DNA of 64,000 nt from Bdellovibrionales bacterium. Its GTDB lineage: Bacteria > Bdellovibrionota > Bdellovibrionia > Bdellovibrionales > UBA1609. A model generated the notes under the pieces. It did no database searches. It was given only the letters and a program-made list of their open reading frames with translations, and had not been told where the DNA came from. Shown in pieces: positions 18,055 through 45,766 of the stretch (the stretch's first letter is position 1; every line of letters starts with the position of its first letter). Both the position numbers and the translations under genes were made by a program. The DNA lies in NCBI GenBank assembly GCA_965202645.1, contig OZ241840.1, forward strand, positions 307,066 through 371,065, given 5' to 3'.

Positions 18055-18859
18055 GGGCGCTTTACTGCTTCCGAATGGAGTTATTTGGGCCTTCTTTTTT
18101 GTCTATGGCTCTTTTTTGGGCAGTTTTGCCAATGTGCTGATTTATAGAATGCAGGAGGAGGAGCCTCTGGATCTTTTTAAAAAAAGCCATTGCTTTCAAT
18201 GTCATTGCTCTATTCCATTTTATCTCAATATCCCCATTATTTCATGGCATATTTTGCGGGGCCGCTGCCAAAGCTGCGGCCGGCCTTTTTCCTTCCGCTA
18301 CCCTTTTGTTGAGCTTTTAATGGCCGTCCTGTTTTTGGCTCTGTTTTTGGCCATAGGCTGGAAATGGTTTTTGCTGGAGGCTTTAATTTTCGTTTTTGCT
18401 TTGACTGTGGCCAGCTTTATTGACTGGGATCAAATGATTTTGCCGCCCTCTCTCACTTTTTCCGGGCTGGCTATTGGGCTTTTAGGCGCCTCATTAAACC
18501 CTGAGAGAATGTTTTTGGACGCCTTTTTAGGCGCTTTGCTGGGCGGCGGATTTTTATGGCTCATCTCTTATATTTATTTTTTGCTCCGGCGGGAAATGGG
18601 ACTGGGGGGAGGGGATGTGGCCCTGATCGCTTGGATTGGAGCTGTTTTGGGCTGGCCGTCTTTGTCTTTTGTGATTTTATGCTCTTGTTTTTTGGGCAGT
18701 TTGGCGGGCTTGGGAGTTATATGGCGCAGAGGCAGTCAAAAGGGCTTGCGGACAGCCATCCCTTTTGGGCCGTTTTTGGCCGTCAGCTCATTGATTTACA
18801 TATTTTTAAAGGAATGGATAGACAGCTCGGCTGGCTTTTTCATGCCTTTTTCCCTTTGA
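18047..18859 (+). CDS. pilD: Prepilin peptidase
   Basis: GSFANVLIYR, CxxC pairs, NIPIISW, GGGD, IPFGPFL. Confidence 0.93.
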   Translation: MFEGALLLPNGVIWAFFFVYGSFLGSFANVLIYRMQEEEPLDLFKKSHCFQCHCSIPFYLNIPIISWHILRGRCQSCGRPFSFRYPFVELLMAVLFLALFLAIGWKWFLLEALIFVFALTVASFIDWDQMILPPSLTFSGLAIGLLGASLNPERMFLDAFLGALLGGGFLWLISYIYFLLRREMGLGGGDVALIAWIGAVLGWPSLSFVILCSCFLGSLAGLGVIWRRGSQKGLRTAIPFGPFLAVSSLIYIFLKEWIDSSAGFFMPFSL

Positions 18860-23041: not shown

Positions 23042-25360
23042 ATGATCAAGCCCATTATTTTAACATTTTTTCTTTTTCTATTTTTTAGTTATTCCTCTCT
23101 TTCTTTTTCTTTAATGAAGGACAGCCTTCTTGTGGCTCAGGAGGAATCTTTATTTGACGACAAGGATTTAGCGGATATTGAGGGAGGCGCTGAGCCGGCG
23201 GAGGAGACTGACTCTTTTAAGGAGGGGGATAATTTTGATGAGGAGGATTTTGAGGTTGTGGATGAGGAAGGGGAGTCTGCGGGGGATGAGGATTCTGAGG
23301 AGGCGGAGAGTGAGGATTCTGAGGAGGCTCAATTTGATGTGGGCGATTATGAAATTATCAGCGACCGGCCGGATTATGAAGTGAGCAGTGATGAGGAGCT
23401 GGAGAGGGAGTTTAAAGAGGACAGCGCGGAGGGCCAAAAGGACAGCGCGGGAGAGGATTTAGACGCTGAATTTGACGCGGAGCTGGAGGAGGAGGCTGAA
23501 TTTGAGGAAGTGGAGGGATTAGATGAATCCCCTGAAGAGGAGCTGGAGACAGAGGAGGGTCTGGCGGAAGAGGCTATTGAGGGAGGCGAGTTAGAGGAAA
23601 TTCCCTCTGAGGAGCTGGCTGGAGAGGATTCCGCTTTAGAGGAGGATGTGGCTGTTGAGAATGGGGAGGATTCGGGGGCTTTAAACTTGATTACCAATAT
23701 TCGCTACTTAGCGAATGAGGATCAAATTGTCATTGACTGTTCGGAGCCGACCTCTTACCAAGTGAGAAACAATGAGGAGACCCATCAATTTATTATTGAA
23801 ATTCTGCAGGCTAAGCTGGCTGACAATTTGCATTGGCCTTATGTGCTCAGGGATTTTAATACAGATTTTGGCTTGATTAAGGCGGATCAAAAAGACTCCA
23901 GCACAGTGAGAGTTATTATCCAGATCAAAGAGGGGGGCACGTTTCCTCAATCTGTTTTATCGGAGAGCGGCAATCAAATTTTAGTCGCTTATGGCGCGGT
24001 GGAGGGCCATCAAATCATTCCGGAGGCCGGAGGCCACAGCGCGGATCCCAGATCTGCTCTTCCCGCCAGAACTTTGGAGGACTTATACTTTGGAGACATT
24101 CAATTTTCCGGCGCTCCCATCTCCTTCCATGTTATTGACGCGCCCATTAAACAGGTTCTCCGCTTTATTTCGGAGGAAAGCGGCTTAAACATGGTGATAG
24201 GCGAAAAAGTCTCAGGCTCTATCACTTTAAAATTAGAGGATGTGCCTTGGGATCAGGCCCTGCACACCATTTTTAAAGTCAAATCTTTGGGCTATACCAG
24301 GGACGGCAATGTCATCACAATACTTCCTTTAGAGGAGATAGAGAAAAGAGCAAAAAAGCTTAAAGAGATTTCAGAGAGGCAAAAAGGCATGGCTCCTTTT
24401 GAGACTAAGGTGATCTCCGTTAATTATGCGAAAATCGGCGCTGTCGCGGATAAAATTAAGGAGTTTGCCACCCCTAAAAGCGATTTTTCCAAAGGCGGGC
24501 GAATTATAACTCATCCTGAAAGCAATACTTTTGTTATTATAGACAGCGCGGAGGCCATTAAAAAAATTGAGGCCATGGTTAAGCATTTAGATAAGCCGCC
24601 TAAGCAAGTTATGGTGGAGGCTAAAATTGTGGAAGTGATAGAAAATTTTGCCAAAAATTTTGGCTTGCAGTGGGGGTTAAGCGGAGATATTCCTGTGGTG
24701 CATAATCTCAACGATTTCATTGAAGTGGTTAGAAATCCGGAGTCATTGTCAGGAGCTTGGGGAACTAATTATGATGGCGGCCAAAGCGATGCCGCGCTAA
24801 GCATAGCTGGTCTTCCCATTTTGGGAAATATTTCCGCTAGTTTGAGCCTGGCGGAAAATGACGGCTACGCTAAAGTGATAAGCAATCCAAAATTGATTGT
24901 TATCAGCGGGAAGCAGGCTTCCATCAGCAGAGACTCCCCTATTCTTATTCCTAAGTCGGCCACCACAACAATTTCAACGGGAGGGGATCGATCAGACTCA
25001 CAGTCATTTGAAAAGCAGGAAGTGTCTATTAGCTTAGATGTGACCCCCACAGTGACCCCTACGGGGAGTATTTTTCTCAAAGTCAATGTGAACCGGGCCG
25101 ATCCGGGGGCAAAATCCCCCAAAGCCGGAGATACTGTGTCAGTAACAAAAAACGCAAAAACAGAGGTTTTAGTCAAAAATGGCCAAACAATTGTTATTGG
25201 GGGAATTTATGATCAGAACAAGATTGTGAATAACCAGGGCCTGCCCTGGTTAAGGCATATTCCCTTTTTAAATTTATTGTTTAATACAAAGGGAACTTCC
25301 GAAGTGCGAAACGAGCTTCTTGTGTTTATCACGCCTAAACTGCTGGATAGTCATGAATAG
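23042..25360 (+). CDS. pilQ: Type IV pilus secretin PilQ with an acidic N-terminal extension
   Basis: DVPWDQAL, QVMVEAKIVE, GQTIVIGGIY, ELLVFITP secretin motifs. Confidence 0.95.
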   Translation: MIKPIILTFFLFLFFSYSSLSFSLMKDSLLVAQEESLFDDKDLADIEGGAEPAEETDSFKEGDNFDEEDFEVVDEEGESAGDEDSEEAESEDSEEAQFDVGDYEIISDRPDYEVSSDEELEREFKEDSAEGQKDSAGEDLDAEFDAELEEEAEFEEVEGLDESPEEELETEEGLAEEAIEGGELEEIPSEELAGEDSALEEDVAVENGEDSGALNLITNIRYLANEDQIVIDCSEPTSYQVRNNEETHQFIIEILQAKLADNLHWPYVLRDFNTDFGLIKADQKDSSTVRVIIQIKEGGTFPQSVLSESGNQILVAYGAVEGHQIIPEAGGHSADPRSALPARTLEDLYFGDIQFSGAPISFHVIDAPIKQVLRFISEESGLNMVIGEKVSGSITLKLEDVPWDQALHTIFKVKSLGYTRDGNVITILPLEEIEKRAKKLKEISERQKGMAPFETKVISVNYAKIGAVADKIKEFATPKSDFSKGGRIITHPESNTFVIIDSAEAIKKIEAMVKHLDKPPKQVMVEAKIVEVIENFAKNFGLQWGLSGDIPVVHNLNDFIEVVRNPESLSGAWGTNYDGGQSDAALSIAGLPILGNISASLSLAENDGYAKVISNPKLIVISGKQASISRDSPILIPKSATTTISTGGDRSDSQSFEKQEVSISLDVTPTVTPTGSIFLKVNVNRADPGAKSPKAGDTVSVTKNAKTEVLVKNGQTIVIGGIYDQNKIVNNQGLPWLRHIPFLNLLFNTKGTSEVRNELLVFITPKLLDSHE

Positions 25361-33450: not shown

Positions 33451-33465
33451 TTGGGAGATAACTTT

Positions 33466-34830
33466 ATGTTTAAAAGCGCCAGAGCGCTTCGCAAAATAAG
33501 GGGCAAGCTTTATTCAGCTCCAGACATATCCCCGACTTTTTGTGTGTATCCCTGGATGGAGTTTATAGCGGGGCCTACGGAGCATATCAAAATATGCTGT
33601 ATTGCCGAAGACGCTGTGCTGGATGAAAAGGGGAGAGCTTACACTTGCGCTGAGGACTCTTTGGAGGGCTATTGGAACGGCTATGGCTTGAGGCGCATTC
33701 GCAAAAAGATGCTGGCAGGCGAAAAGCTTTCCGCCTGCCGGCATTGCTATTATCAAGAATCTATAGGCCGAACATCCTATAGGCAGTCTTTTAACAAACA
33801 ATGGTTTAAGTCAGAATACGGAAGGGATATTTTTGACAGAGTGGAAAAAAGCAGAGGCAATGGCTACAGGGTGGAGGCGCCGCCTCTTTATCTGGATATT
33901 CGGCCGGGAAACTTATGCAATCTGAAATGCCGGATGTGCAATCCGGGGAACAGCTCAAAAATTTACAAAGAGCAAAAGGAAATGCTTAAAAGCCATTCGG
34001 AATTTGGCCCCTTGGTTGACAGCAATTATTTTATTAAAGACGAAAAAGCTTTTCATAATTGGCATAAAAATAAAAGCCTGTGGAAGTCTGTTTATAAATG
34101 GGCGGAGGGGGCAAAGCAGTTGTATTTTACCGGCGGCGAGCCAACCCTGATTAAAGAGAACTGGCGCTTAATCGATCATTTGAAGTCCAAGGGTATCTCA
34201 AAAAATATAGATTTAATTTTTAATATCAACTGCACACAGTCCCCGGACAAGCTTTTAGAGGCTTTTGACGCCTTTTCAACTGTCACTGTCACATTTAGCA
34301 TAGACGGCTATAAGGAGACTCAGGAGTATATCCGGCATCCATCAAAATGGCGGGACATTGAGAGCCATATCATAAAAATTTTAAAACACAGAAAAAGCCG
34401 CGGATCAAGCAATGTCCAATTTTACTTTTCCCCTGTGGCTCAAGTTTATAATATTTTGGATTTGCCGAGGCTTCTGCGATGGATTGACAAGCTCCAGGAG
34501 GATTATGGAAAGATAGGAAACAGTATGATTATGCTCACAGGGCCGGACTATTTGGATATTTCCATTTTGCCCAATACAATAAAAAAGAGGGCTTTGTTGA
34601 GCATTGAGGAGTATGAAAGCGCCTATAAAGGCTCTGATCAATTTCTTTTAGAGTGTTTGCGCTCGATCAAAAATGTTTTAAAGAGGGATGAAGGCCCCGA
34701 TGCGGGAAAAAAGCTAAAGAGATTTTACAAATACACTAAATTATTGGATGAAAAGCGGGGGGAGAGCTTTTTTAAAGCTTTTCCAAAGCTTAGCCGTTTA
34801 TTGGATGAGGATGGCCGATGGAAAAATTAA
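33466..34830 (+). CDS. Twitch/SPASM-domain radical SAM protein 1
   Basis: N-terminal CVYPW...CC...CRHC; CNLKCRMC; FTGGEP. Confidence 0.9.
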   Translation: MFKSARALRKIRGKLYSAPDISPTFCVYPWMEFIAGPTEHIKICCIAEDAVLDEKGRAYTCAEDSLEGYWNGYGLRRIRKKMLAGEKLSACRHCYYQESIGRTSYRQSFNKQWFKSEYGRDIFDRVEKSRGNGYRVEAPPLYLDIRPGNLCNLKCRMCNPGNSSKIYKEQKEMLKSHSEFGPLVDSNYFIKDEKAFHNWHKNKSLWKSVYKWAEGAKQLYFTGGEPTLIKENWRLIDHLKSKGISKNIDLIFNINCTQSPDKLLEAFDAFSTVTVTFSIDGYKETQEYIRHPSKWRDIESHIIKILKHRKSRGSSNVQFYFSPVAQVYNILDLPRLLRWIDKLQEDYGKIGNSMIMLTGPDYLDISILPNTIKKRALLSIEEYESAYKGSDQFLLECLRSIKNVLKRDEGPDAGKKLKRFYKYTKLLDEKRGESFFKAFPKLSRLLDEDGRWKN

Positions 34831-36101
34831 ATCCCACAGAGGCGAAAAATAACAAGCCTCTTTCCCCGACTTTTTGTGTTTTGCCCTGGATTCATATAGC
34901 CACAAAGACTTATGGAAATGTGACTCCCTGCTGTGTGGGCGAGCCTTTAAAGGAGAATTTGAATGAGACTGTATTTTCGGAGGTTTGGAACTCTCTTTCC
35001 CTGAGAGATATGAGAGTTGGCATGCTGAAGGGGCAAAAGCTGGATGTTTGCAGGAGGTGCTATGATGAGGAAAAGGCGGGCATAGCCTCCCACAGAGTCA
35101 GATCCAATGGCTACTGGAGGGATTATTACTCTTTCGCGGAGCTGGCAAAAAAAACAAATTCCGAAGGCGCTTTTGCGGAGCCGGCCGTTTATTTGGATTT
35201 GCGGCTGGGCAATAAATGCAACTTGGAGTGTGTCATGTGCGGCCCTCAGGAAACCATCCGCTGGGAGAGTTTGTCAAAAAAGATTTATAATGAGGCTCAG
35301 ACGGCTAACTTAAAGGAATACTTAAAAAACACAATGGATTTTATGGAGCAGGCCTCTTCTAAATTATGGTATGAGAGGGAGGAGATCAAGCGGGATATTT
35401 ATAGGCAAATTCCCTTTTTAAAGCGGGTCACTATAGCCGGGGGAGAGCCTCTTTTAATTCGAGAGCATCATAAATTTTTGGACGCGTGCATTGAGCAAAA
35501 ACAAGCCCATCATATATCCCTTCATTATCACACCAACGGCACGGCCCTGAGCGCGGAGTTATTTGACAAGTGGAGGCGCTTTGAGTCAGTTATTGTTTTT
35601 ATAAGCTTAGACGATATTGGGGAGAGAAACCGCTATATTCGCTACCCCTGCTCCTGGCGGCGGATTGAAAACAATCTGGAAATGATTGATCAAAAATCCC
35701 CTCCCAATGTTCATCCTATGATTCTTTGCACTATTCAGATTAAAAATATATTTTATTTTGATGAGTTTCTCTCCTATTTCACCGGAAAGCGCTTTAAAAA
35801 GGTTCACGCCTATTATGATGATTTAGTCCATACTGAGGTTGTTCATCACCCTTACTTTTTAAACTGCCAGCTCCTTCCCCCTGGAGTGAAAAAAATTGTC
35901 TCCCAAAAATTTGAGGATATTTATAAAAAATTTCCCGCTAAAACCAACCGGTTTAAAACTATAGCCGGCTTTATGAATAAAGAGGACAAAAGCCATTTGC
36001 TGTATGTGTTTCAGGATTATATTCAGGCTTTAGATAAAGCCAGAGGGACTTCGTTTTCCAAAACTTTTCCCCAGCTGGCGGAGCTTTTAGAGATGAGCTG
36101 A
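34818..36101 (+). CDS. Twitch/SPASM-domain radical SAM protein 2
   Basis: CVLPW...CC...CRRC; CNLECVMC; AGGEP. Confidence 0.9.
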   Translation: MEKLNPTEAKNNKPLSPTFCVLPWIHIATKTYGNVTPCCVGEPLKENLNETVFSEVWNSLSLRDMRVGMLKGQKLDVCRRCYDEEKAGIASHRVRSNGYWRDYYSFAELAKKTNSEGAFAEPAVYLDLRLGNKCNLECVMCGPQETIRWESLSKKIYNEAQTANLKEYLKNTMDFMEQASSKLWYEREEIKRDIYRQIPFLKRVTIAGGEPLLIREHHKFLDACIEQKQAHHISLHYHTNGTALSAELFDKWRRFESVIVFISLDDIGERNRYIRYPCSWRRIENNLEMIDQKSPPNVHPMILCTIQIKNIFYFDEFLSYFTGKRFKKVHAYYDDLVHTEVVHHPYFLNCQLLPPGVKKIVSQKFEDIYKKFPAKTNRFKTIAGFMNKEDKSHLLYVFQDYIQALDKARGTSFSKTFPQLAELLEMS

Positions 36102-36362
36102 TGGATAAAACAGGAGGCTTTATTAAACGCTGTTGAGGCGGAGCTTTATGGATAACATAGAAGGCTTTATTAAACGCTGTTGAGGCGGAGCTTTATGGAT
36201 AACATAGAAGGCTTTATTAAACGCTGTTGAGGCGGAGCTTTTGGAGATGAGTTGATAAAAACAGGGGGCTTTATCAAACGCTGTTGAGGCGGAGCTTTAT
36301 GGATAACATAGAAGGCTTTATTAAACGCTGTTGAGGCAGAGCTTTTGGAATGGATAAAACAG
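36077..36362. repeat. ~47-bp tandem repeat (~5 copies) built around the rSAM2 stop/rSAM3 start junction
   Basis: Units join ggcggagcttt (rSAM2 end) to atggataa (rSAM3 start). Confidence 0.9.
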
Positions 36363-37624
36363 ACGAAAAAATGAAAACTTTTTGCCCTTTGCCCTGGACG
36401 CATATCAGCGCCGGCCCAGAGGGCAAAGGGAGAATTTGCTGTGATGGCTACGAGTGGCTTAAAAATGGCTCAAATAATGTGTTATGGAGGAAGTCAGAAA
36501 ATCTCCGCTCCTATTTTAATTCTGAAAGCTATAAGCGGACTAGAGTGAAAATGCTGAAAGGGGAGAGGCCCCGGCACTGTTTTTATTGTTTTCAGCAAGA
36601 GGATCATGGAGTAAAAAGCATGCGCCTGCAATTTATAGATCAGTATAAAGAGGATATTGAGAGTATGATCAGCTCCACCCATCCGGACGGCTCAATAGAT
36701 CATCCTCAAATCACTTATATAGACATGGCTCTGGGCAACAAATGCAATTTGAAATGCCGGATGTGCTCCCCTTGGAACTCTTACGCGATCGGAAAAGACT
36801 GGCAAAAAATGGGACTGCTTTTTAATGAGAGCGGCGCCAAAAAGATATTTGAGGACAAGTGGTATGCGTCAGATAATTCTTTGAGAATGATTAAAGAGGC
36901 CTTGCCTCATGTTCGCGCTATTTTTACAACCGGCGGCGAGCCTATGATTATAAAAGAGCACTTAAGCCTTTTGAGGATGATCGCAAAGGAGGGCCATGCC
37001 CATCATATTTGTTTGAGATATAACTCCAATCAGACAGTCATCCCGGAAGAGATTATAGAGCTTTGGAGGCCTTTTCAGGCCGTGGATTTTAACTGCTCTG
37101 TTGAGGCTTATGGGGCGCTCAATGACTATATTCGCTATCCCTCTAAATGGGAAAAGCTGGAAAAAAATCTTTTCTTTTTAGATAAGCTCTCATCTGAAAG
37201 GCGGGGCTTAAATGTTTATATTCACACCACTTTGCAGGCTTATAATGTGATAAAAATTCCGGAGTTTTTAAGCTGGTTAAGGCGGGCGGACTTTAAAAGC
37301 GTCCATCGATTTCCTTTTTTTATTTGGGTCCGGATTCCTCAATGGCTGTCTCCCGCGTTGCTCCCTGAAAAGATGAGGCGTGAGGCTGGCGATAAAATTT
37401 TGGAAAGCTTGAGAGAGCATGAGGAGTTTTTTCTCAATTATAACCCTGAGCATCGGGGCTGGTCCTCTCAAAGGATTCAAATTTTGAAAGAGTTTTGCGG
37501 GATGATCAAAAACAGCGAGGAGCCAGGCTTGAGCGAATTTGTCGAGCAGACCAAAAAACATGACAGCTTAAGGGGCCAGTCTATTTTGAGGGTTTTGCCG
37601 GAATTTCAGCCATTTTTCTCTTAG
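36350..37624 (+). CDS. Twitch/SPASM-domain radical SAM protein 3
   Basis: CPLPW...CC...CFYC; CNLKCRMC; TGGEP. Confidence 0.9.
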   Translation: MDKTDEKMKTFCPLPWTHISAGPEGKGRICCDGYEWLKNGSNNVLWRKSENLRSYFNSESYKRTRVKMLKGERPRHCFYCFQQEDHGVKSMRLQFIDQYKEDIESMISSTHPDGSIDHPQITYIDMALGNKCNLKCRMCSPWNSYAIGKDWQKMGLLFNESGAKKIFEDKWYASDNSLRMIKEALPHVRAIFTTGGEPMIIKEHLSLLRMIAKEGHAHHICLRYNSNQTVIPEEIIELWRPFQAVDFNCSVEAYGALNDYIRYPSKWEKLEKNLFFLDKLSSERRGLNVYIHTTLQAYNVIKIPEFLSWLRRADFKSVHRFPFFIWVRIPQWLSPALLPEKMRREAGDKILESLREHEEFFLNYNPEHRGWSSQRIQILKEFCGMIKNSEEPGLSEFVEQTKKHDSLRGQSILRVLPEFQPFFS

Positions 37625-37706
37625 CTGGCCTGTTGGCTGGTGGAATCATCAGGCTCTGTTTGACTCTCTATAAATTTAAAAAACAGGGAAAAAGCGCGAA
37701 ATCAAA

Positions 37707-39197
37707 ATGGAGCAAAAATCTTTAGAGCAAAGGGAGCTGGCTCATATCAAGAGAAAATTGGATTCTGTCAGCCCCTCTATGTGTTTGGCTAAATGGATGC
37801 AGGTCAGTTTGCATTTAACAACGGGCCGGACGCATAGCTGTTATCATCCTCCGGCTCACAGCATTGATCCGGCGGAGCTGTTAAAAGATCCCTCAGCTCT
37901 TCACAACACAAAACAAAAAAAAGAGGAGCGGGCCTTAATGCTAAAAGGGGAAAGGCCGGAAGGCTGCTCTTACTGCTGGAGCATAGAGGACTCGGGAAAT
38001 CATTACAGCGACAGGCATTACCGCTCTTTAGAGCCTTGGGCAGAGAAAAATTTTCAAGAAGTCCTTCAAAAAGGCTGTGACAGCCCCATTATTCCCTCCT
38101 ATATGGAGGTTAATTTTAATCCAGCCTGCCAGTTTAAATGCAGTTATTGCTCTCCGCATCTGTCGACAACATGGATGGAGGAGATTAAGCGGCACGGCGC
38201 TTATCCCACAATCGTTCCCCATAATGACATAGAAAATTTAAAAAAGATGAGCTTATGGCCCATCAGCTCTAAAGAGGATAATCCTTATGTGGAGGCTTTT
38301 TGGAAGTGGTGGCCGGAGCTTTATCCCCGCTTAAGGGTGTTTCGAATGACCGGAGGAGAGCCATTGATTGATCCCAACACTTATCGTGTTTTAGAGTATA
38401 TCCGCTTCCATCCTCATCCGGAGTTGGAGCTGGCCATTACCAGCAATCTTTGCCCGCCTGAAAAAATGATGAATCGATTCCAAAGCGAGTTAAGAGGCAT
38501 TTTAAAAGACAGAAAAATAGCCCGTTTCATGCTTTTTCCCTCCATAGACGGCTGGGGGCGACAGGCGGAGTATATCCGTTTTGGCTTGGATATCAGGGAA
38601 TTTGAAAAAAATGTGAGATCGCTGATAAAAAATATACCGGAGACGCTCATCAGTTTTATTGTGACAGTCAACGCTCTGTCCCCTTTCTCTTTGGAAGATC
38701 TTTTGGACAGAATTTTGGAGTGGCAAAAAGAGGCCTTTTATCTCTATAAGGGGAATTATAGACGCGTCTTTTTTGATTTGCCTTATTTGCGGGCTCCCGC
38801 CTGGCAGGCTTTAAATATTCTTCCGGAGGGAATGGCCGGCTCTTATTTTAAAAGGGGGCTTGATTTTATGGAAAAAAACAAGGTGAATCTCCCTAAAGGC
38901 AAGCCTTATGGCTTTTCGGATTTTCAAATCAATAAAATGAGGCGGCTTATTGATTTATCCAACAAGACTCCGGATCAAAAGCAGTTGGAAATCAATCGGA
39001 TAAATTTTTATAAATTTTTTAGCGAGCATGATCGCAGAAGACAAACTGATTTTGTGGAGGCTTTTCCAGAGTTAAAATTGTTTTGGAGGAGCTGTCGGGC
39101 GCTGAGCAAAAAATGGGACAGAGCGCAGGAGAAAGCCCGTCTTAAGACAGCTCGTCTTGAGGCGAAGAAGAAAGCCCGGAGCCGGCAGTCCGGCTAA
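37707..39197 (+). CDS. Twitch-domain radical SAM protein 4 (divergent subtype)
   Basis: CLAKW...SCYHP...CSYCW; CQFKCSYC; TGGEP. Confidence 0.9.
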   Translation: MEQKSLEQRELAHIKRKLDSVSPSMCLAKWMQVSLHLTTGRTHSCYHPPAHSIDPAELLKDPSALHNTKQKKEERALMLKGERPEGCSYCWSIEDSGNHYSDRHYRSLEPWAEKNFQEVLQKGCDSPIIPSYMEVNFNPACQFKCSYCSPHLSTTWMEEIKRHGAYPTIVPHNDIENLKKMSLWPISSKEDNPYVEAFWKWWPELYPRLRVFRMTGGEPLIDPNTYRVLEYIRFHPHPELELAITSNLCPPEKMMNRFQSELRGILKDRKIARFMLFPSIDGWGRQAEYIRFGLDIREFEKNVRSLIKNIPETLISFIVTVNALSPFSLEDLLDRILEWQKEAFYLYKGNYRRVFFDLPYLRAPAWQALNILPEGMAGSYFKRGLDFMEKNKVNLPKGKPYGFSDFQINKMRRLIDLSNKTPDQKQLEINRINFYKFFSEHDRRRQTDFVEAFPELKLFWRSCRALSKKWDRAQEKARLKTARLEAKKKARSRQSG

Positions 39198-39354: not shown

Positions 39355-40767
39355 ATGTCCAGCAAACTAAAAAAGCTTAATCGGCAATCAATTTACCCCC
39401 CCCCCCCCCCCCCCCCCCGATTTTTTTCGCTTATAAATAAGCTCTCTAAAACCCCATTACATGACGGGTTTAGCCTGATTGAAGTTTTAATAACCGCCAC
39501 AGTTGGTTTAATACTGGGCGCCGGGGTTTTAAAGCTAAGCCAAGTCGCTATCCAAAATACTAACATTGTCCAGACAAGCCTTGTGGAGAGTGAGCTTAAA
39601 AGAGCGATTGATAAATTTTTAAACGATCCGGATAATCCGACACAATGCCAAGATGTTTTAGGCCCTTTTCATGCCAGCGATTTGTCAGCCTCTCCCGTGT
39701 CAGTTTATCCCCAGACTCCAGTCCCAACCGCAGACCCGGCTAAAACAGCTTATGAGAAGTTAGGAAAACTGGCCGGAGAGACAGGGCTTATCTCCATTGA
39801 AAAAATAGAGCTTAAGGATAAGTCCGATCCAGTGAGACAGTTTATAGTTTATTATAAAAAGCCTAGACTGGGAAAGTATGAGACTATCGGCGGCGGCAGA
39901 TGCACCGGCGGGACAGCGGCGGGAGATCAAAACGGCTGTTATTTTGTCAGCTGTGACATAAAATACAGATGCTCAAATGCCGATTGTGATGGCAAGGGCG
40001 CGGACACTGATCCCGCCGTGACAGATGATGACGATATAAAATGCCAGCTTATAAAGTGTGAGGGCACGGGAAAAAGCCTATCGGATGTTGGCGAATGCGG
40101 CGACAATGAGCATCTTAAAGGCTTTGACTCCACAGGGAATCCAATTTGCCAGCAGAATTGCACTGGCGGAAGGCAATGGGATGAGTCAACCACGCCGCCC
40201 GGATGCGGATGCCCGGCTAATACTCGATGGAATGATATTTTTAGGAGATGCACTTTTTGTCAGCCGCATCAAAGGCTTGGCTCTGATGGAAACTGTGTTG
40301 ATGTTTGCCCGCCAAGCTCAACGGAGATAAGGCAAGTATGGAATGGGATGCAATGTATTTGTCCTTTTACCACAGTTGTTAACAATAAAGGCGACTGTGT
40401 ATGTCCACAATCCGAGTTTATTTCAGTCCAGCCTAGCTGGGATTCTGGATTGCAAAAGTGTCAATGCCCGCAAAATAATACCAGAAAATATTTTAATGGC
40501 AGAAAATGCACGACTTGTCCCAATGGCCAACACAGACGGGGTGATGCGGACTCCATGGATCCTAACCCTAATAGATGCTTGGCTTATAATTCAATAGGAG
40601 AAGGTATAAACCCAGTCGCCGGAAAAATTTATTGTAAAAAGCGCAACACGATCAAATATCTCTATGATCTTGAAACAAAAAGCTGTTGGCCTAATCCTAT
40701 GCAAAATGGGATATATATGGGAGAGCATGCCGGTCATACAAGCTGGACAGGACAGCCATCTTTTTAA
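39355..40767 (+). CDS. Prepilin-type N-terminal cleavage/methylation protein with Cys-rich (EGF-like) repeats
   Basis: G|FSLIEVLI plus hydrophobic helix; repeated WD/WN...C.CP units. Confidence 0.8.
   Translation: MSSKLKKLNRQSIYPPPPPPPRFFSLINKLSKTPLHDGFSLIEVLITATVGLILGAGVLKLSQVAIQNTNIVQTSLVESELKRAIDKFLNDPDNPTQCQDVLGPFHASDLSASPVSVYPQTPVPTADPAKTAYEKLGKLAGETGLISIEKIELKDKSDPVRQFIVYYKKPRLGKYETIGGGRCTGGTAAGDQNGCYFVSCDIKYRCSNADCDGKGADTDPAVTDDDDIKCQLIKCEGTGKSLSDVGECGDNEHLKGFDSTGNPICQQNCTGGRQWDESTTPPGCGCPANTRWNDIFRRCTFCQPHQRLGSDGNCVDVCPPSSTEIRQVWNGMQCICPFTTVVNNKGDCVCPQSEFISVQPSWDSGLQKCQCPQNNTRKYFNGRKCTTCPNGQHRRGDADSMDPNPNRCLAYNSIGEGINPVAGKIYCKKRNTIKYLYDLETKSCWPNPMQNGIYMGEHAGHTSWTGQPSF
39396..39418 (+). 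repeat. C23 homopolymer in the prepilin leader (candidate phase-variation tract)
   Basis: 23 consecutive C, currently in frame (YPPPPPPPR). Confidence 0.85.
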
Positions 40768-40808
40768 AGAGCAAGCCGGAGCCAGCCGATAAAAAAAGCG
40801 GAGTGTCC

Positions 40809-40991
40809 ATGAGGCTGGCTTTTCTTTTTTTGCTGTTTAGCTTTTGTCTTAATCTTGAGGCGACTCCTGATAAACAAATCTCTGAAGATCAATCGCCGGA
40901 GAGTTTAGATATTATGCCGCTGGCCACACAAGCAATCATAAAGAGCAAAGCGCAAGGCAAAGACTCACAAGCGCAAAAGCCCAAAGCATAA
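40809..40991 (+). pseudogene. Short signal-peptide-bearing ORF, probably a truncated secreted protein
   Basis: MRLAFLFLLFSFCLNLEA signal peptide; 5' part recurs at ~43106-43175. Confidence 0.5.
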
Positions 40992-41017
40992 AACAAAACC
41001 ATAAGGAGACTTACCTG

Positions 41018-41104
41018 TGGTTTAAACACGCGGCAGAGAATGGCAATCCTTTTGCTCAATTCAGTTTAGACAGACTCAATAAGCTCAATAATAAAGAGCG
41101 CTAA
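41018..41104 (+). pseudogene. SEL1-like repeat fragment
   Basis: WFKHAAENGNPFAQFSLDRL...*. Confidence 0.6.
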
Positions 41105-41389
41105 GATCAGGCTTATGCCCGGCGGAAAAAGCTGGCCAGCCGGAGAGATAAAAGAATCGGGCAAGGCTCAGCTGAATTGAGGCCCGCGGCTGGGAGTCAA
41201 TTCAGCCGGCAGTTTCCGCCGGCAATTAAAGCGCCAGCCGGAGCCAGCCGATAAATAAAGCCGTCCGCCGCTTTGTTTGTGGCCAGCGGCTTAATAACCT
41301 AGTTTGTAAAATATTCACACTAGAGAGATTTAAATTTGCTTTTTTTTTTACTGTGATATAAAATCCTCAAATAAACCATAGGAGGATTT

Positions 41390-42358
41390 ATGCAAAAAAA
41401 TATTATAAGGCTTTTCTCTGCCTTAACCAAAGAGATAAAAATCGGCTTTATCGGAGTCTTAGCCGCTGGGGCTATCCTGTTTTGTCAAAGCGCTCTAGCC
41501 TCTAATAAAGTTCAATCGGCAGAGAGCGTAAAGCTTAAAGCGGAAGGCAGAGACCCACAGGCTCAAACTGAATCCGAGTTTGAATTTTTATTTGAGCCGG
41601 CGGGAAATGTTATCTTGATTGGCGAGAATCATACTTCGGCTTTGCATTCAGCTATAAACAAAGCTCTTATAAAAAAGAGCGCCTTTGGCGACATTTGCCT
41701 GGTTTCTGAAGGCTTTACACCTAATGAAGGAAGACATATTAGGGAACATGCGCCAAAAGCTTGTTTTTTTGGAATAGATGATAAAATTTTAAACCAGATG
41801 GGTGTTTTTTTAAAGGACTATATATTGTTGTCAAAACCAAATCAAAGGGATATTGATATTGGAGCGAAGGAGCTTAGGCTGATGCTTTCTCAATTAGAAA
41901 ATGAAGATAATTTTATATTAAGGCATGCCGTAAAAAACACGCAAACTTTAAACTATGTGAATACGATTTTAAAAAACAGCCAGCCTTTTGACACAGAGAT
42001 AGTAAAACATATAGCTCAGGAAATGTCTCGAATCGCCAGAGATGGCCAATTGCTTCCGGTAAGCCTTCTAGATGTATATGACGCCACAATTAATAATCCA
42101 AAAAGCTACAATTTGTTTGTTCAAGCTTTTCTTATAGAGGCCAGAGATTTATCTTTTGTAAAAAATATTTTGCCAATATACGAAAAAAAGGCTTTAGAGG
42201 AAAACAAACCAGTCATAGTCTCTGTAGGAGCGGCGCATCTCGATGGCTTATATGATCTTCTTGCGGCAGAAGGCATAAAATCCAGACGGCTTAATTTAAT
42301 TAATTTGTCTAACCAAGAGCTTATGAGCTTGTTCGATTTTATACTTGATGGATTTTAG
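41390..42358 (+). CDS. Secreted protein with a TIKI/TraB/EreA-ChaN-like motif set
   Basis: Shared leader MQKNIIRLFSALTKEIKIGF; ILIGENH, VSEG, EARD, SVGAAHL motifs. Confidence 0.6.
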   Translation: MQKNIIRLFSALTKEIKIGFIGVLAAGAILFCQSALASNKVQSAESVKLKAEGRDPQAQTESEFEFLFEPAGNVILIGENHTSALHSAINKALIKKSAFGDICLVSEGFTPNEGRHIREHAPKACFFGIDDKILNQMGVFLKDYILLSKPNQRDIDIGAKELRLMLSQLENEDNFILRHAVKNTQTLNYVNTILKNSQPFDTEIVKHIAQEMSRIARDGQLLPVSLLDVYDATINNPKSYNLFVQAFLIEARDLSFVKNILPIYEKKALEENKPVIVSVGAAHLDGLYDLLAAEGIKSRRLNLINLSNQELMSLFDFILDGF

Positions 42359-42588
42359 TTTGGCAAATGAGCGGAAAAAGCTGGCCAGCCGGAGAGATAA
42401 AAGAATCGGGCAAGGCTCAGCTGAATTGAGGCCGCGGCTGGGAGTCAATTCAGCCGGCAAATCAGTTTGAGCCTCACAGCTCAGGTCTGGTTAGGCGGAT
42501 TTTGTAAAATTTTCAAACTAGAGAGATTTAAGATGATTTAAGTTTTTTGCTGTGATATAAAATCCTCAAATAAACCATAGGAGGATTT

Positions 42589-43044
42589 ATGAAAAAAATC
42601 ATTATAAGGCTTCTCTCTGCCTTAACCAAAGAGATAAAAATCGGCTTTAAGCGTTTAGCCGTGATATGCATTATCGGACTAATCGGCTTTTCTAATTATG
42701 GTTATGGATCGGTGAATGGTGAAGATAGGGACGGATGGACTCCCCTTTTCTACAGCGTCATAAATGGAAATTATGAGGCCTCAAAGAGTTTAATATATGA
42801 CGGAGCTGATGTCAATGCTAGAGATAATACCGGAGCGACTGCTTTTCATTATGCCGCATTTTTAGGAAAAAGTAAAATTGCAAAATTGCTGATCGACTCC
42901 GGATCTAATTTCAAATCTCTAGATAATGATAAATGGACTCCTTGGCACTATGCCACTGTTCGTAACAAAATTAAAAGCATACTATCTATAATAAAAAGAA
43001 AAGCACCGGGGACGCTGGAGGGCAAGAAGGTTTGCCAGCCTTAA
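42589..43044 (+). CDS. Secreted ankyrin-repeat protein
   Basis: GWTPLFY, GADVNARDNTGATAFHYAA, WTPWHYA; shared leader. Confidence 0.85.
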   Translation: MKKIIIRLLSALTKEIKIGFKRLAVICIIGLIGFSNYGYGSVNGEDRDGWTPLFYSVINGNYEASKSLIYDGADVNARDNTGATAFHYAAFLGKSKIAKLLIDSGSNFKSLDNDKWTPWHYATVRNKIKSILSIIKRKAPGTLEGKKVCQP

Positions 43045-43340
43045 GCTAGAGGGCAAGGCCACGCCAAAGGCTAACTAAGCCGGCTCAATCTATTTAAGTT
43101 TGCTTTGAGGCTGGCTTTTCTTTTTTTGCTGTTTATCTTTTGTCTTAATCTTGAGGCGACTCCTGATAAACAAATACCTAAAGCTCAGGCTTATGCCCGG
43201 CCGTCCGCCGCTTTGTTTGTGGCTAGAGGCTTAATAACCCAGCTTGTAAAATGTTCACACTAGAGAGATTTAAAATAATTTAAGTTTTTTCTTTTTTTTT
43301 ACTGTGATATAAAATCCTCAAACAAACCATAGAAGGAGTT

Positions 43341-43403
43341 ATGCAAAAAATCATCACAAGGCTTTTATCCGCCTTAACCAAAGAGAGAGCCAGCCCAGTT
43401 TAA
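43341..43403 (+). pseudogene. Truncated third copy of the shared-leader cassette, ending in a MITE terminus
   Basis: MQKIITRLLSALTKE then agagagccagcccagtttaa (MITE end) and stop. Confidence 0.7.
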
Positions 43404-43407
43404 AAGC

Positions 43408-44097
43408 TTATTTTTTATCGCGTTTAGCTGTGGGTTTGGCGGGCGCTTCCTTTTTTTCCTCAACAGCCGGTTGAGTCTCAGATGGAGCTGTTCCCGCCTC
43501 TCCGGCTGTTTCAGCCGGCTCTTTTTTCTCCTCCTCTTCTTTGGCTGGAACCACAGAGCATAAGGCCATTTGGCCTTTGGTTATTCTTTTGATATTTTTA
43601 GGCAGGCTTATATCTGAAACATGTATGTTTTGATTGAGGGATAAATTTGAGACATCCGCCTCAATGAAAGAGGGTATTTCAGCGGGGAGGCACTCAATTT
43701 CAATTTTTCGCAAGATAATGTTGAGCGCTCCGCTCTCCTCTTTGACTCCTTTGGGAGTCCCTTTAAAGCGAACTTCCACATAAACGCGAATAGGCGCTGT
43801 CATATCTAAAGAGAGAAAGTCCATGTGAATGGCCTGCTGGCTGGTTTTATGGCGGGATATGGATTTTTTTATAACTTTTAAGCCCTTTAAGTTTTGATCT
43901 TCTGAATCAAAAGTGAAAATTTTGTTTTCAAATTCTTTTTTAGAGTATTTTTCGGCCAGCCGTATATCCAGAGAGAAAGCGATATTTTTTTGGCCCTTGC
44001 CGTAGACAATAGCCGGAATCCGCTTGTTTTTGCGGATTTTTTTGTTTTGTTTTCCTCTTTCGGCCCTAGGGGACACTTGTATTATCAGGCTTTCCAT
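43408..44097 (-). CDS. rplY: 50S ribosomal protein L25 (Ctc form)
   Basis: IPAIVYG, HMDF, GTPKGVKE, ECLPAEIP; downstream of prs. Confidence 0.93.
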   Translation of the reverse strand: MESLIIQVSPRAERGKQNKKIRKNKRIPAIVYGKGQKNIAFSLDIRLAEKYSKKEFENKIFTFDSEDQNLKGLKVIKKSISRHKTSQQAIHMDFLSLDMTAPIRVYVEVRFKGTPKGVKEESGALNIILRKIEIECLPAEIPSFIEADVSNLSLNQNIHVSDISLPKNIKRITKGQMALCSVVPAKEEEEKKEPAETAGEAGTAPSETQPAVEEKKEAPAKPTAKRDKK

Positions 44098-44171
44098 TTT
44101 TCCCTCTTCAGGGCTGTTTCTAAAAGACAATTTAGGATCTGTCAATCTTTTATTGGATAGGGAAAAAAATT

Positions 44172-44373
44172 TAACTGATATGGCTCTCTTGACCTATTCA
44201 CGAGGCTAAATCTGTTTTTATTCCAGAGTCCAAGCTTATCTTTATCGGGATGGGCGTCTTGCCCTTACCCGCTTTTGGCCATCTGTGGAGCAGCCAGTCC
44301 TCAAAAACAAGCTTGGACTCTGGAAAATTAAAGATCATAATGGGGTTTAGATCAAGAGAGCCAGCCCAACTTA
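44172..44373. mobile_element. MITE-like element, copy 3
   Basis: Same ends and internal palindrome as 30755-30952. Confidence 0.8.
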
Positions 44374-44647
44374 AAAAAATTTTTTAGGCTGAGTCATTCT
44401 CGGCTGACATATTCTTTTTTAGAGTTGTAGCGGACGCCATTGATCTTGAGGCTGAGTCATTCCCGGCTGAAACATTTTTTTTTAAAGAGGGCTAGAGCTT
44501 TTTAAGGCGTGACATCCCTGTTGTGGGCAGGCTTTAAGCCAGCTGGCCGGCGGAAGCTGAGGGAGCGTTAATTTCCCTCTGGCATGAGAGGAGATTCTCG
44601 CAAAAAAGCCTGCAAAATAAGCGCTTGGGCTTGAAAAATTTAAAAGA

Positions 44648-45583
44648 TCAGTCAAAAAGAGAGCTGACTGAGTTTTTGTTGGCAATTCTTTTTATGGCCT
44701 CCGCCACAAGAGGGGCTAAGCTGACTGTTCGGATTTTTTTGCATTTTTTCGCGGAGGAGGAGAGAGGGATGGTGTCTGTCACGAGGACTTCTTTTAAAGG
44801 GCTTTTTTCGATTCTGTCCACAGCGGATCCGGAAAATAAAGGGTGGGTGGCCAGGGCCATAACCTCTTGAGCTCCCGAATCTAAAAGAATAACAGAGGCT
44901 TCGCACAAGGTGCCGGCTGTGTCAACCATGTCATCTAAAATCAAAGCTGTTTTGCCTTTCACATCGCCAATAAGATTAAGGGCTTTGGCTTTGTTGTGAT
45001 CCTGCCGCCTTTTGTCGATCATGGCCACGCCGGCGTTGTCTATTTTTTTGGCAAAGGCTCTGGCTCTCTCCGCGCCGCCGGCGTCTGGGCTGACAACAAC
45101 AATATTTTTTCCGGAGTGATTGCGCCTCCAAGCTTGCGCCAAAACAGGAGAGGCGAAAAGGTTGTCTACGGGAATATTGAAAAATCCTTGAATTTGCGGG
45201 GCATGCAAATCCACTACAAGCAATCTGTTGGCTCCCGCCGCGGCGGACATGTCCGCCACACATTTTGCGGAGATGGGAACACGGGGAGCGGATTTTCGGT
45301 CTTGCCGGGAGTAGCCATAGTAGGGCATGACCAAAGTGATCTCCTGAGCGGAAGCCCTTTTTAGGGCGTCCAGCATTAAAAACAGCTCCATATAGTTTTC
45401 ATTTACCGGCGGGCAGGCGCTTTGTATGACGAAGACATGGAGGCCGCGGACATTTTCCTTGATTTGAATAAAAATTTCGCCATCCGCAAAACGGGAAATT
45501 TCAATATTCCCCAATTTTGTGTTTAAGCATTTCGCTGTGTTAGAGGCAAAAAGAGGGTTGGAGCTTCCGGAAAATATTTTCAT
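44648..45583 (-). CDS. prs: Ribose-phosphate pyrophosphokinase
   Basis: FADGE, PYYGYSRQDRK, DLHAPQIQGFF, VSPDAGG, DDMVDTAGT. Confidence 0.98.
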   Translation of the reverse strand: MKIFSGSSNPLFASNTAKCLNTKLGNIEISRFADGEIFIQIKENVRGLHVFVIQSACPPVNENYMELFLMLDALKRASAQEITLVMPYYGYSRQDRKSAPRVPISAKCVADMSAAAGANRLLVVDLHAPQIQGFFNIPVDNLFASPVLAQAWRRNHSGKNIVVVSPDAGGAERARAFAKKIDNAGVAMIDKRRQDHNKAKALNLIGDVKGKTALILDDMVDTAGTLCEASVILLDSGAQEVMALATHPLFSGSAVDRIEKSPLKEVLVTDTIPLSSSAKKCKKIRTVSLAPLVAEAIKRIANKNSVSSLFD

Positions 45584-45766
45584 TTTTCGCCTTTAGCTAG
45601 CTGTTTTTTTGCCTTTAGCTAGCTGTTTCTCGCTTTTAGCGGGCTGTTTTTTCGCCTTTAGCTAGCTGTTTTTTCGCCTTTAAGCTGGCTGTTTCTCGCT
45701 TTTAGCGGGCTGTTTTTTCGCCTTTAGCTAGCTGTTTTCTGCCTTTAGCTGGCTGTTTTCTCGCCA
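45584..45766. repeat. ~22-bp tandem repeat (~8 copies) of the prs translation-initiation region
   Basis: On the minus strand, cagctagctaaaggcgaaaaa repeats right up to the ATG. Confidence 0.9.

Follow-up and report, generated by a model that had tools for sequence, protein, structure and literature searches.

Terminal reassortment, in which an N-terminal module is joined to unrelated resident genes in single steps and at variable junctions, leaving chimeras and stubs behind, was reportedly described for type III effectors by Stavrinides, Ma & Guttman in 2006. The process is described in PMC2668190 and cited in PMC2722093. In phytoplasmas, a conserved presumed signal peptide, the sequence-variable mosaic (SVM, PF12113), heads the unrelated proteins SAP11 and SAP54 in a repeat-rich reduced genome, according to PMC8026896. 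Here we report on L1, a leader that recurs in a gene cluster within a 64,000-nucleotide stretch of DNA from a Bdellovibrionales bacterium (the window). The window is C1:307066-371065 of the host genome, an 88%-complete assembly of 2.25 Mb in two contigs; C1 denotes the contig bearing the window, and bare coordinates are window positions. We consider it probable that L1 is a remodelled type IV pilin N-terminus without the glutamate required for assembly (Glu5), that it heads at least six cargo families, on which it would likely act as a Sec signal, and that it was likely spread by general recombination. The pilin origin is an addition to the initial annotation, which had proposed one promoter, ribosome-binding site (RBS) and signal-peptide module fused to unrelated secreted cargo.

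L1 resembles terminal reassortment in its non-homologous cargo, module-free donors and variable junctions. The difference lies in the module, which is a type III signal there, whereas L1 is hydrophobic, cleavable-looking and traceable to a pilin gene, and its host is not a known pathogen. With phytoplasma SVM it shares the arrangement of one conserved leader on unrelated, predicted secreted proteins, but the sequences are unrelated (no PF12113 match on L1 proteins at E<=0.1 or E<=0.01 in Pfam scans), no shared transposon-like unit was identified around L1 copies, and L1 is pilin-derived. To the type IV prepilin signal it is homologous at the DNA and protein level over the RBS, n-region and first hydrophobic helix, and five copies retain the 5′ untranslated region (UTR); it departs from pilins in the loss or alteration of FSLIELLVV with Glu5, in having no globular domain and in the A-x-A motif that comes after. 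Literature searches, with subscription journals largely outside their coverage, returned no report of a pilin N-terminus as a general signal peptide nor of terminal reassortment of Sec signals. As a process, the shuffling belongs to a known kind; what is new is the unusually traceable origin of the leader.

Genomic distribution and pilin origin of L1

A profile search of six-frame open reading frames (ORFs) gave 19 matches at E<0.05, of which 17 contain the L1 n-region and two the hydrophobic part only. The 17 L1 copies are spread over 11 loci and head nine Sel1, two ankyrin and two TIKI-fold proteins, one β-solenoid and one protein without a Pfam family; the other two are a frameshifted fusion to a 1,175-aa repeat protein and a stub. 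Pfam matches of the cargo are confined to Sel1, Ank and B_solenoid. BLASTN E-values between leader copies range from 1e-72 to 4e-5, which excludes chance likeness, and 15 of the 17 combine an in-frame hydrophobic region with a cargo of 151-324 aa. All repeated blocks named in the initial annotation were recovered (upstream parts from 41304, 42502 and 43244; short blocks at 40764/41226, 40810/43106 and 41260/43200), as was its assignment of the leader to a TIKI/TraB-like protein, an ankyrin protein and a truncated ORF. The leader block itself spans 41344-41450, 42543-42649 (95% identity) and 43295-43401 (82%), with ATG codons at 41390, 42589 and 43341. Leader and trailer blocks turned out to be repeated genome-wide, not locally, and 17 copies with six cargo clusters exclude a single decayed tandem duplication.

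As a control, we clustered the 5′ ends of 2,363 called genes. This gave 82 families with a shared 5′ end, and L1 covered the most cargo clusters (16 ORFs, six clusters); among the families listed, most other multi-cluster ones consisted of truncated copies, apart from a few exceptions with two or three members. L1 was spread partly with duplicated loci, since 11 of its 17 copies lie within 5 kb of one of seven Cys-rich pilin-like paralogs; six of the seven have leader copies within that distance. These paralogs, one of them in the window, contain a poly-C tract (polyproline) in the N-terminus (39400-39420), and their C-terminal halves vary. Insertion sequence (IS) copies were found near two L1 loci (C1:506394, 749206) and none at the window cluster.

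A DNA search of 40 relatives returned weak matches to L1 in two only, G001 (twice, both at pilin starts) and G009 (once, unexplained). Against nine genomes of the host's genus, to which G001 and G005 belong, the L1 profile found pilin-like segments only, in three genomes; a wider collection of genome contigs gave two short hydrophobic matches, metagenome contigs gave none, and a protein search yielded nine proteins, every one on a contig equal in length to that of the host. These collections may lack records very close to the window's genome.

Both G001 matches are starts of type IV pilin genes (TIGR02532 and N_methyl matches) that begin RLFSAFTKE(K/R)K-x-TLG|FSL. Every one of the 17 L1 copies scores 60-102 against the G001 pilin 5′ end, with shuffle maxima of 26-34, and the best 20 of 2,363 gene starts in this comparison are L1 genes or pilins. 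Alignment of leader and pilin by hhalign gave a probability of 97.2% (E 4e-11). At the DNA level, L1 of the form we call type A aligns with the pilin over the RBS, prepilin leader and first helix, with two gaps: one of 9 nt close to the start, the other of 39 nt and in frame, by which STLGFSLIELLVV, the processing/Glu5 segment, is lost. In type B, G|F is retained, three codons are absent and Glu5 is changed to Lys. Glu5 is missing in all L1 copies. Pilin IPAYQS aligns with ILFCQS of type A, ahead of a new ALA, and the hydrophobic part of one L1 copy is identical to host pilin C1:1727827 at 35/35 nt. In the five copies with a 5′ UTR alignable to that of the G001 pilin, the same hairpin is present (BLASTN E 4e-8 and 1e-4 for two copies; 80% mean identity in a six-way alignment).

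Full pilins occur in 10/10 genus genomes, with varied leaders of which those of G001 are closest to L1. The deleted form was found only in the host genome among the relatives, genome and metagenome contigs and proteins searched, and the N-termini of 12 Sel1-like proteins, drawn from 15 stretches in five relatives, differ from L1. We therefore read the direction as pilin to L1. The pilin origin of the leader is much firmer than its export route. Short-read runs X1, X2, X3 and X5 were also used, X1 and X3 being one sample and possibly the source of the assembly. In X2, a pilin-type continuation behind the leader matches the G001 pilin and has no exact or one-mismatch match in the host; since it may stem from a G001-like organism, we do not count it as evidence for the host strain.

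Other pilin loci show rearrangements of their own. Four major-pilin paralogs of the host (C1:1727827, 1737744, 1740941, 1748689) lie in both orientations, only one with an obvious RBS-linked longer leader, and may form a pilin variation locus. At the host pilin locus L021:4729-5127, a complete pilin N-terminus with G|F and Glu5 intact stands on a 90-aa non-pilin tail without genomic paralog, possibly an intermediate type of fusion. In G005 (C8:1-3775, C60), headless pilin cassettes in both orientations lie next to one full pilin and all start at the same LVVVGIIG-coding motif, resembling a pilin shufflon or silent-cassette system; no recombinase is present on these short contigs.

Donors, junctions and the proposed route of spread

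Donors without L1 are found for four cargos: C1:387443 (TIKI, 70% aa identity), C1:1540135 (the donor of the C1:232952 cargo, 96% aa over 234 residues), C1:967692 (β-solenoid) and C1:695113 (a repeat family, donor family of the C1:2190121 cargo). The TIKI donor has a different signal peptide, which the outside homolog P0003 bears as well; the L1-TIKI gene is therefore the derived form. The L1 copy on C1:2190121 has a frameshift and precedes the start that the donor itself uses. At least six different L1-cargo junction positions were seen: at the boundary of n-region and hydrophobic region (n/h), after A-x-A, ~22 codons into the coding region of a Sel1 gene (the window TIKI fusion) or of an ankyrin gene, within the 5′ UTR of a donor and, in the stub, at codon 15-16. 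Two joins have short microhomology (TGAT; GGCT-AA). The stub is cut at sequence resembling the end of a repeat at 44355.

Exchange inside the leader is visible in a 1,608-bp duplicate (99.8% identity). Its right end falls at the leader n/h boundary, where type B and ankyrin follow in the window, and type A and β-solenoid at C1:1374490-1376097; its left end lies within a block of six copies, and both ends are in repeated blocks. The idea of the initial annotation that recombination at shared blocks swaps cargo is borne out to this extent, but a fixed crossover site was not found.

Run X5, labelled sponge metagenome and from a separate study, contains contigs 90-99% alike over parts of the region, and a close relative is therefore present in that metagenome. 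One X5 contig (depth 3.8) has the Sel1 end, trailer, upstream block and start codon with the TIKI unit missing, an order absent from the host; a second (depth 4.5) joins a shortened leader to sequence without a host match at <=3 mismatches. As single low-depth contigs of a relative, they hint at the strain-variable cargo suspected earlier and do not prove it. Contig depths in X2 (β-solenoid 126, TIKI 68/32, ankyrin 12, single-copy 20-25) may weakly hint at copy-number variation, contig depth not being copy number. Reduced sponge Bdellovibrionota have been described, including two metagenome-assembled genomes (MAGs) without type IV pili (PMC9944714); unlike those two, the host genome has pilins, four secretins and two prepilin peptidases.

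We propose the following route. Alignment shows that a pilin 5′ end (RBS, prepilin leader and first hydrophobic helix) lost 13 codons covering G|FSLIELLVV in type A, and three codons with a change of Glu5 to Lys in type B. The type A segment IPAYQS is predicted to have turned into ILFCQS-ALA, yielding a signal peptidase I site. The leader would have expanded on Sel1 genes, partly inside duplicated loci composed of a Cys-rich pilin-like gene, trailer and Sel1. Its joining at variable points to other resident genes, shown by donors still in the genome, would follow. Whole units would then move, and cargo be swapped, as leader and trailer copies undergo homologous recombination or gene conversion; first-time fusions would arise through microhomology joins. 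Many products would decay, and those left intact may enlarge the set of periplasmic or secreted proteins with repeat types that are frequent in host-associated bacteria. The process requires no machinery of its own, since the same genome also duplicates the 5′ ends of housekeeping genes; general recombination among dispersed repeats, and not a dedicated recombinase, likely spread the leader. Loss of mismatch repair was considered as a cause and rejected, MutS being present with an open reading frame.

Several points weigh against this reading. No intact pilin with an L1-type n-region occurs in the host genome, whose own pilins carry other leaders, and the parent gene is for this reason inferred from G001. 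Only 1/27 base pairs of the UTR hairpin covaries. Duplicated 5′ ends are also seen at housekeeping and non-secreted genes (C1:1909779-1910145, 877307/877465, 2107327), and ~21% of C1 is matched by BLAST at other places in the host genome, so that an adaptive value of L1 fusions does not follow. Three of the five units in the window are broken, the ankyrin pair has a dN/dS of ~1.2, and leader pN/pS is only 0.64 over 45 non-independent pairs. A sigma-70 scan found no site at any of the three window leader copies; export, cleavage site and promoter of L1 are predictions, and a prepilin peptidase might still recognise Gly19 with the F/I/L behind it. Finally, the long arrangement is beyond phasing with short-read contigs, and the sample behind X1/X3 may be that of the assembly itself.

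Cargo, signal class and alternative readings

The TIKI fusion product (322 aa) matches Pfam TraB at E 0.0027, below cut-off, and the ankyrin product (151 aa) matches Ank_2 at E 1e-16. A protein library search with the TIKI protein gave 15 relatives at E<=0.001; PDB sequence searches returned nothing relevant, and the TIKI cargo is present in 0/9 same-genus genomes. From 13 sequences (P0005 and P0006, which carry unrelated repeats, and P0008 were left out), the fold of this cargo was modelled with pLDDT 92.3, compared with 39 for an earlier model from two sequences. The six best VIA-align rows are ChaN, EreC and BcR135 (Z 8.1-7.4, rmsd 3.4-7.3, 130-172 aligned; next unrelated row Z 6.7), and Foldseek E-values are >0.001. 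Atlas matches (viral clusters only, 0.89-0.91) were not used. As in the TIKI/EreA/ChaN superfamily, a parallel β-sheet core is predicted and a 2His/2Glu plus Arg pattern is present; unlike its members, the cargo stays below all Pfam cut-offs, shares 14-18% identity with solved structures and has no membrane-localisation lobe. The residues E79, H81, E107, R217 and H283, invariant or nearly so in the 13 aligned homologs, were matched by pattern and not by superposition to the motif described for TIKI enzymes in PMC6254334. Since this pattern is kept, the modelled cargo is likely a hydrolase. For the cargo in general, "effector" and "secreted" are predictions.

The chimeras could be mostly neutral debris of a recombination-prone genome, with the Sel1 family alone functional and the other fusions transient accidents. 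We find this unlikely, although the extent of repetition in the chromosome, the duplicated 5′ ends of non-secreted genes, the broken window units, the frameshifted leader at C1:2190121 and an ankyrin pair without purifying signal are all as it would predict. Most copies are nevertheless in frame with cargo of substantial length, as given above, and the TIKI fusion exists twice and keeps its five predicted active-site residues. In two cargo pairs dN/dS is ~0.4 (0.38 for TIKI and its paralog, 0.37 for the C1:232952 cargo and its donor), though this divergence may predate fusion.

By script, the 15 in-frame copies have a net charge of +3 to +6 and a 12-residue hydropathy of 2.1-3.1. A-L/F-A is found at residues 35-37 in nine of 12 type-A copies; of the other three, two carry A-x-A further along and one terminates in a Cys resembling that of a lipobox. 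L1 thus has the positive n-region, hydrophobic h-region and small residues at -3/-1 of a class I signal. Such anatomy fits Sec export with signal peptidase I cleavage, and L1 is likely an ordinary Sec signal peptide cleaved in this way. It is improbable, in our judgement, that L1 is still class III-like, with prepilin peptidase cutting behind Gly19 and the type IV pilus or type II machinery receiving or displaying the cargo. What keeps this alternative alive is Gly19 itself, invariant in 11/11 aligned type-A rows with a basic residue before and F/I/L after it (both intact window copies read KIG|F), although the C1:232952 copy has Ser19. The two prepilin peptidases and four secretins, the proximity of 11/17 copies to a pilin-like gene and the retained pilin 5′ UTR in five copies are also in its favour, as is TcpB, which can still initiate pilus assembly without Glu5 (PMC5207764). 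Glu5, however, is gone in every copy, and efficient pilus assembly requires it (PMC5207764). The L1 proteins scanned had no N_methyl (PF07963) match, whereas four pilins did, the hydrophobic stretch has become shorter, in type B two basic residues follow G|F, and A-x-A is present where the pilin has none. More doubtful still is a role of the pilin 5′ end as a portable address for pilus-coupled export, with copies that have both the pilin UTR and a poly-G promoter tract co-regulated with pili and switched on and off; if true, capture by the leader would be enough, in a single recombination step, to turn the product of any gene into a contact-delivered protein.

The proposed common module holds for the RBS and leader, but not for the promoter: at least three upstream classes exist among L1 copies, so that no promoter region is common to all. 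In four copies of the second class, TTGATT and TAAAAT/TAAATT are separated by a tract of G16-G32; in a fifth, the spacer measures 16 bp and contains no tract. This placement suggests phase variation, and the tracts are candidate phase-variable promoters, their lengths being possible assembly errors; the host genome has 21 G/C runs of >=11. The class I upstream block also precedes a protease-like gene (C1:227364-227799; L016:1364-1800) that is interrupted by an IS1595-family element and bears the signal peptide family of the TIKI donor; the block also moves without L1.

The initial annotation placed the trailer after cargo stops. Copy 2 does lie there, behind TIKI, but copy 1 lies behind a frameshifted Sel1 remnant, and the ankyrin gene has none. 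The two trailers are identical except for a 1-nt gap. The fold has z -3.2 over 114 nt and -1.8 for the hairpin alone, without a U-tail, and ~20 hairpin copies exist genome-wide, many directly after stop codons. Rfam gave no credible family for trailer or UTR (6 loci), and the trailer is found in 0/9 same-genus genomes. It may stabilise or end transcripts, and would supply homology for exchange.

Integron cassettes, shufflons and Piv-type pilin inversion have, like L1 loci, repeats that flank variable cargo, and a hairpin behind many stops is a further shared feature. A programmed system of this kind, swapping cargo at defined leader/trailer sites, seems very unlikely. The TIKI unit does lie between trailers that form direct repeats with a spacing of 1,249 bp, types A and B switch at one motif (ATCGGC), and G005 has headless pilin cassettes; the X5 contig of depth 3.8, which lacks the TIKI unit, would fit as well, but this order is equally expected from RecA-type recombination between two trailers. 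Crossovers differ from gene to gene over at least six junction positions and 11 dispersed loci, and the hairpin has, by inspection, no attC core motifs. Only two tyrosine recombinases (PF00589) were found; both of Xer-like size, they lie at C1:147422 and 1542289, far from L1 loci; no IS110/Piv (PF01548) and no RAYT (PF01797) match exists in the 88%-complete genome, serine recombinases not having been searched for. The zero PF01797 matches also set L1 and trailer apart from REP/BIME elements with RAYT. The notion of a dedicated cassette system in the initial annotation is thus not sustained.

That the cargo swap between two loci is a misassembly across repeats is hardly credible: the duplicate is nearly identical, ends in repeats and is crossed in full by no contig, but independent short-read contigs show the stub-TIKI join (X1, X2 and X3, without mismatch), the type A-β-solenoid join (X2) and the n-region-type B join, TIKI depth is ~2x single-copy in X1 and X3, and the pilin origin and older fusions (70-96% donors) do not depend on the duplicate.

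Window cluster, its surroundings and implications

Feature coordinates are collected in Table 1. The second leader family, which corresponds to the short block 40810/43106, heads Sel1 genes elsewhere in the genome; in the remnant at 40809, a 60-aa ORF stops at 40991 and a Sel1-like tail follows in another frame.

Table 1. Features of the L1 cluster and of upstream tracts at other L1 loci
Feature	Position	Strand	Remarks
Cys-rich pilin-like gene, N-methylation motif	39355..40767	+	N_methyl E 3e-4
Block A (gagccagccgataa), repeated spacer preceding leader 2	40764..40802, 2nd copy 41226-41261	+	
Second leader family (MRLAFLFLL...) on frameshifted Sel1 remnant	40809..41104	+	
Duplicated 1,608-bp segment	41042..42649	+	other copy C1:1374490-1376097, 3 mismatches
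Trailer T copy 1	41122..41211	+	hairpin arms 41171-41180 / 41197-41206
Block D3	41260..41303, 2nd copy 43200-43243	+	
Upstream block, class I, copy 1	41304..41389	+	extended -10 look-alike TG-a-TATAAA 41354-41362 (by eye), RBS AGGAGG 41380-41385
Leader L1, type A	41390..41500	+	pilin-derived n-region and hydrophobic region, then predicted A-L-A signal peptidase I site
Sel1 gene stub between leader and cargo, ~22 codons	41501..41569	+	91% identical to Sel1 gene C1:280685
TIKI/EreA/ChaN-fold cargo (predicted)	41570..42358	+	E79, H81, E107, R217, H283
Trailer T copy 2	42371..42459	+	hairpin arms 42420-42429 / 42445-42454
Upstream block, class I, copy 2	42502..42588	+	RBS 42579-42584
Leader L1, type B (…KIG-FKRLAVICIIGLIG…)	42589..42710	+	1,608-bp duplicate stops at ~42649
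Ankyrin-repeat cargo	42711..43044	+	66% aa to L1-ankyrin gene C1:507745
Stub of second leader family, running into block D3	43105..43263	+	
Upstream block, class I, copy 3	43244..43340	+	
Truncated leader L1, 20 codons	43341..43403	+	abuts convergent ribosomal L25 gene
Poly-G tracts upstream of four L1 genes	C1:749020, 381643, 233065, 1378235		local L018:4010-4040 (-), L010, L016, L009:10230-10255

Directly upstream of the cluster, at 33451-39197, lie four tandem radical-SAM-like genes (459, 427, 424 and 496 aa), the first of which, the sole one scanned, matches PF04055. A prepilin peptidase (18383-18709) and a secretin domain (24851-25345) are encoded 15-22 kb from the cluster. Between L25 and prs, a MITE-like high-copy repeat (44160-44390) has ~66 overlapping matches and very high read depth, its end being similar to the sequence with which the leader stub closes (43385-43414), and an imperfect 21-23-bp tandem repeat (45583-45765) lies immediately upstream of prs.

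The origins of new signal peptides are usually untraceable. Here the parent, edits, donors and products survive at 70-100% identity, the edits including two different in-frame deletions and a new A-x-A, so that one can follow at single-base resolution how a signal peptide arose and a secretome grew. The locus offers a DNA-level view of how new secreted proteins may be made by pasting one leader, likely an export tag to judge by its sequence, onto existing genes. If export is confirmed, L1 would be a case in which nature has converted a class III signal into one of class I, and would provide a testable route by which small-genome, likely host-associated bacteria expand their Sel1 and ankyrin repertoires.

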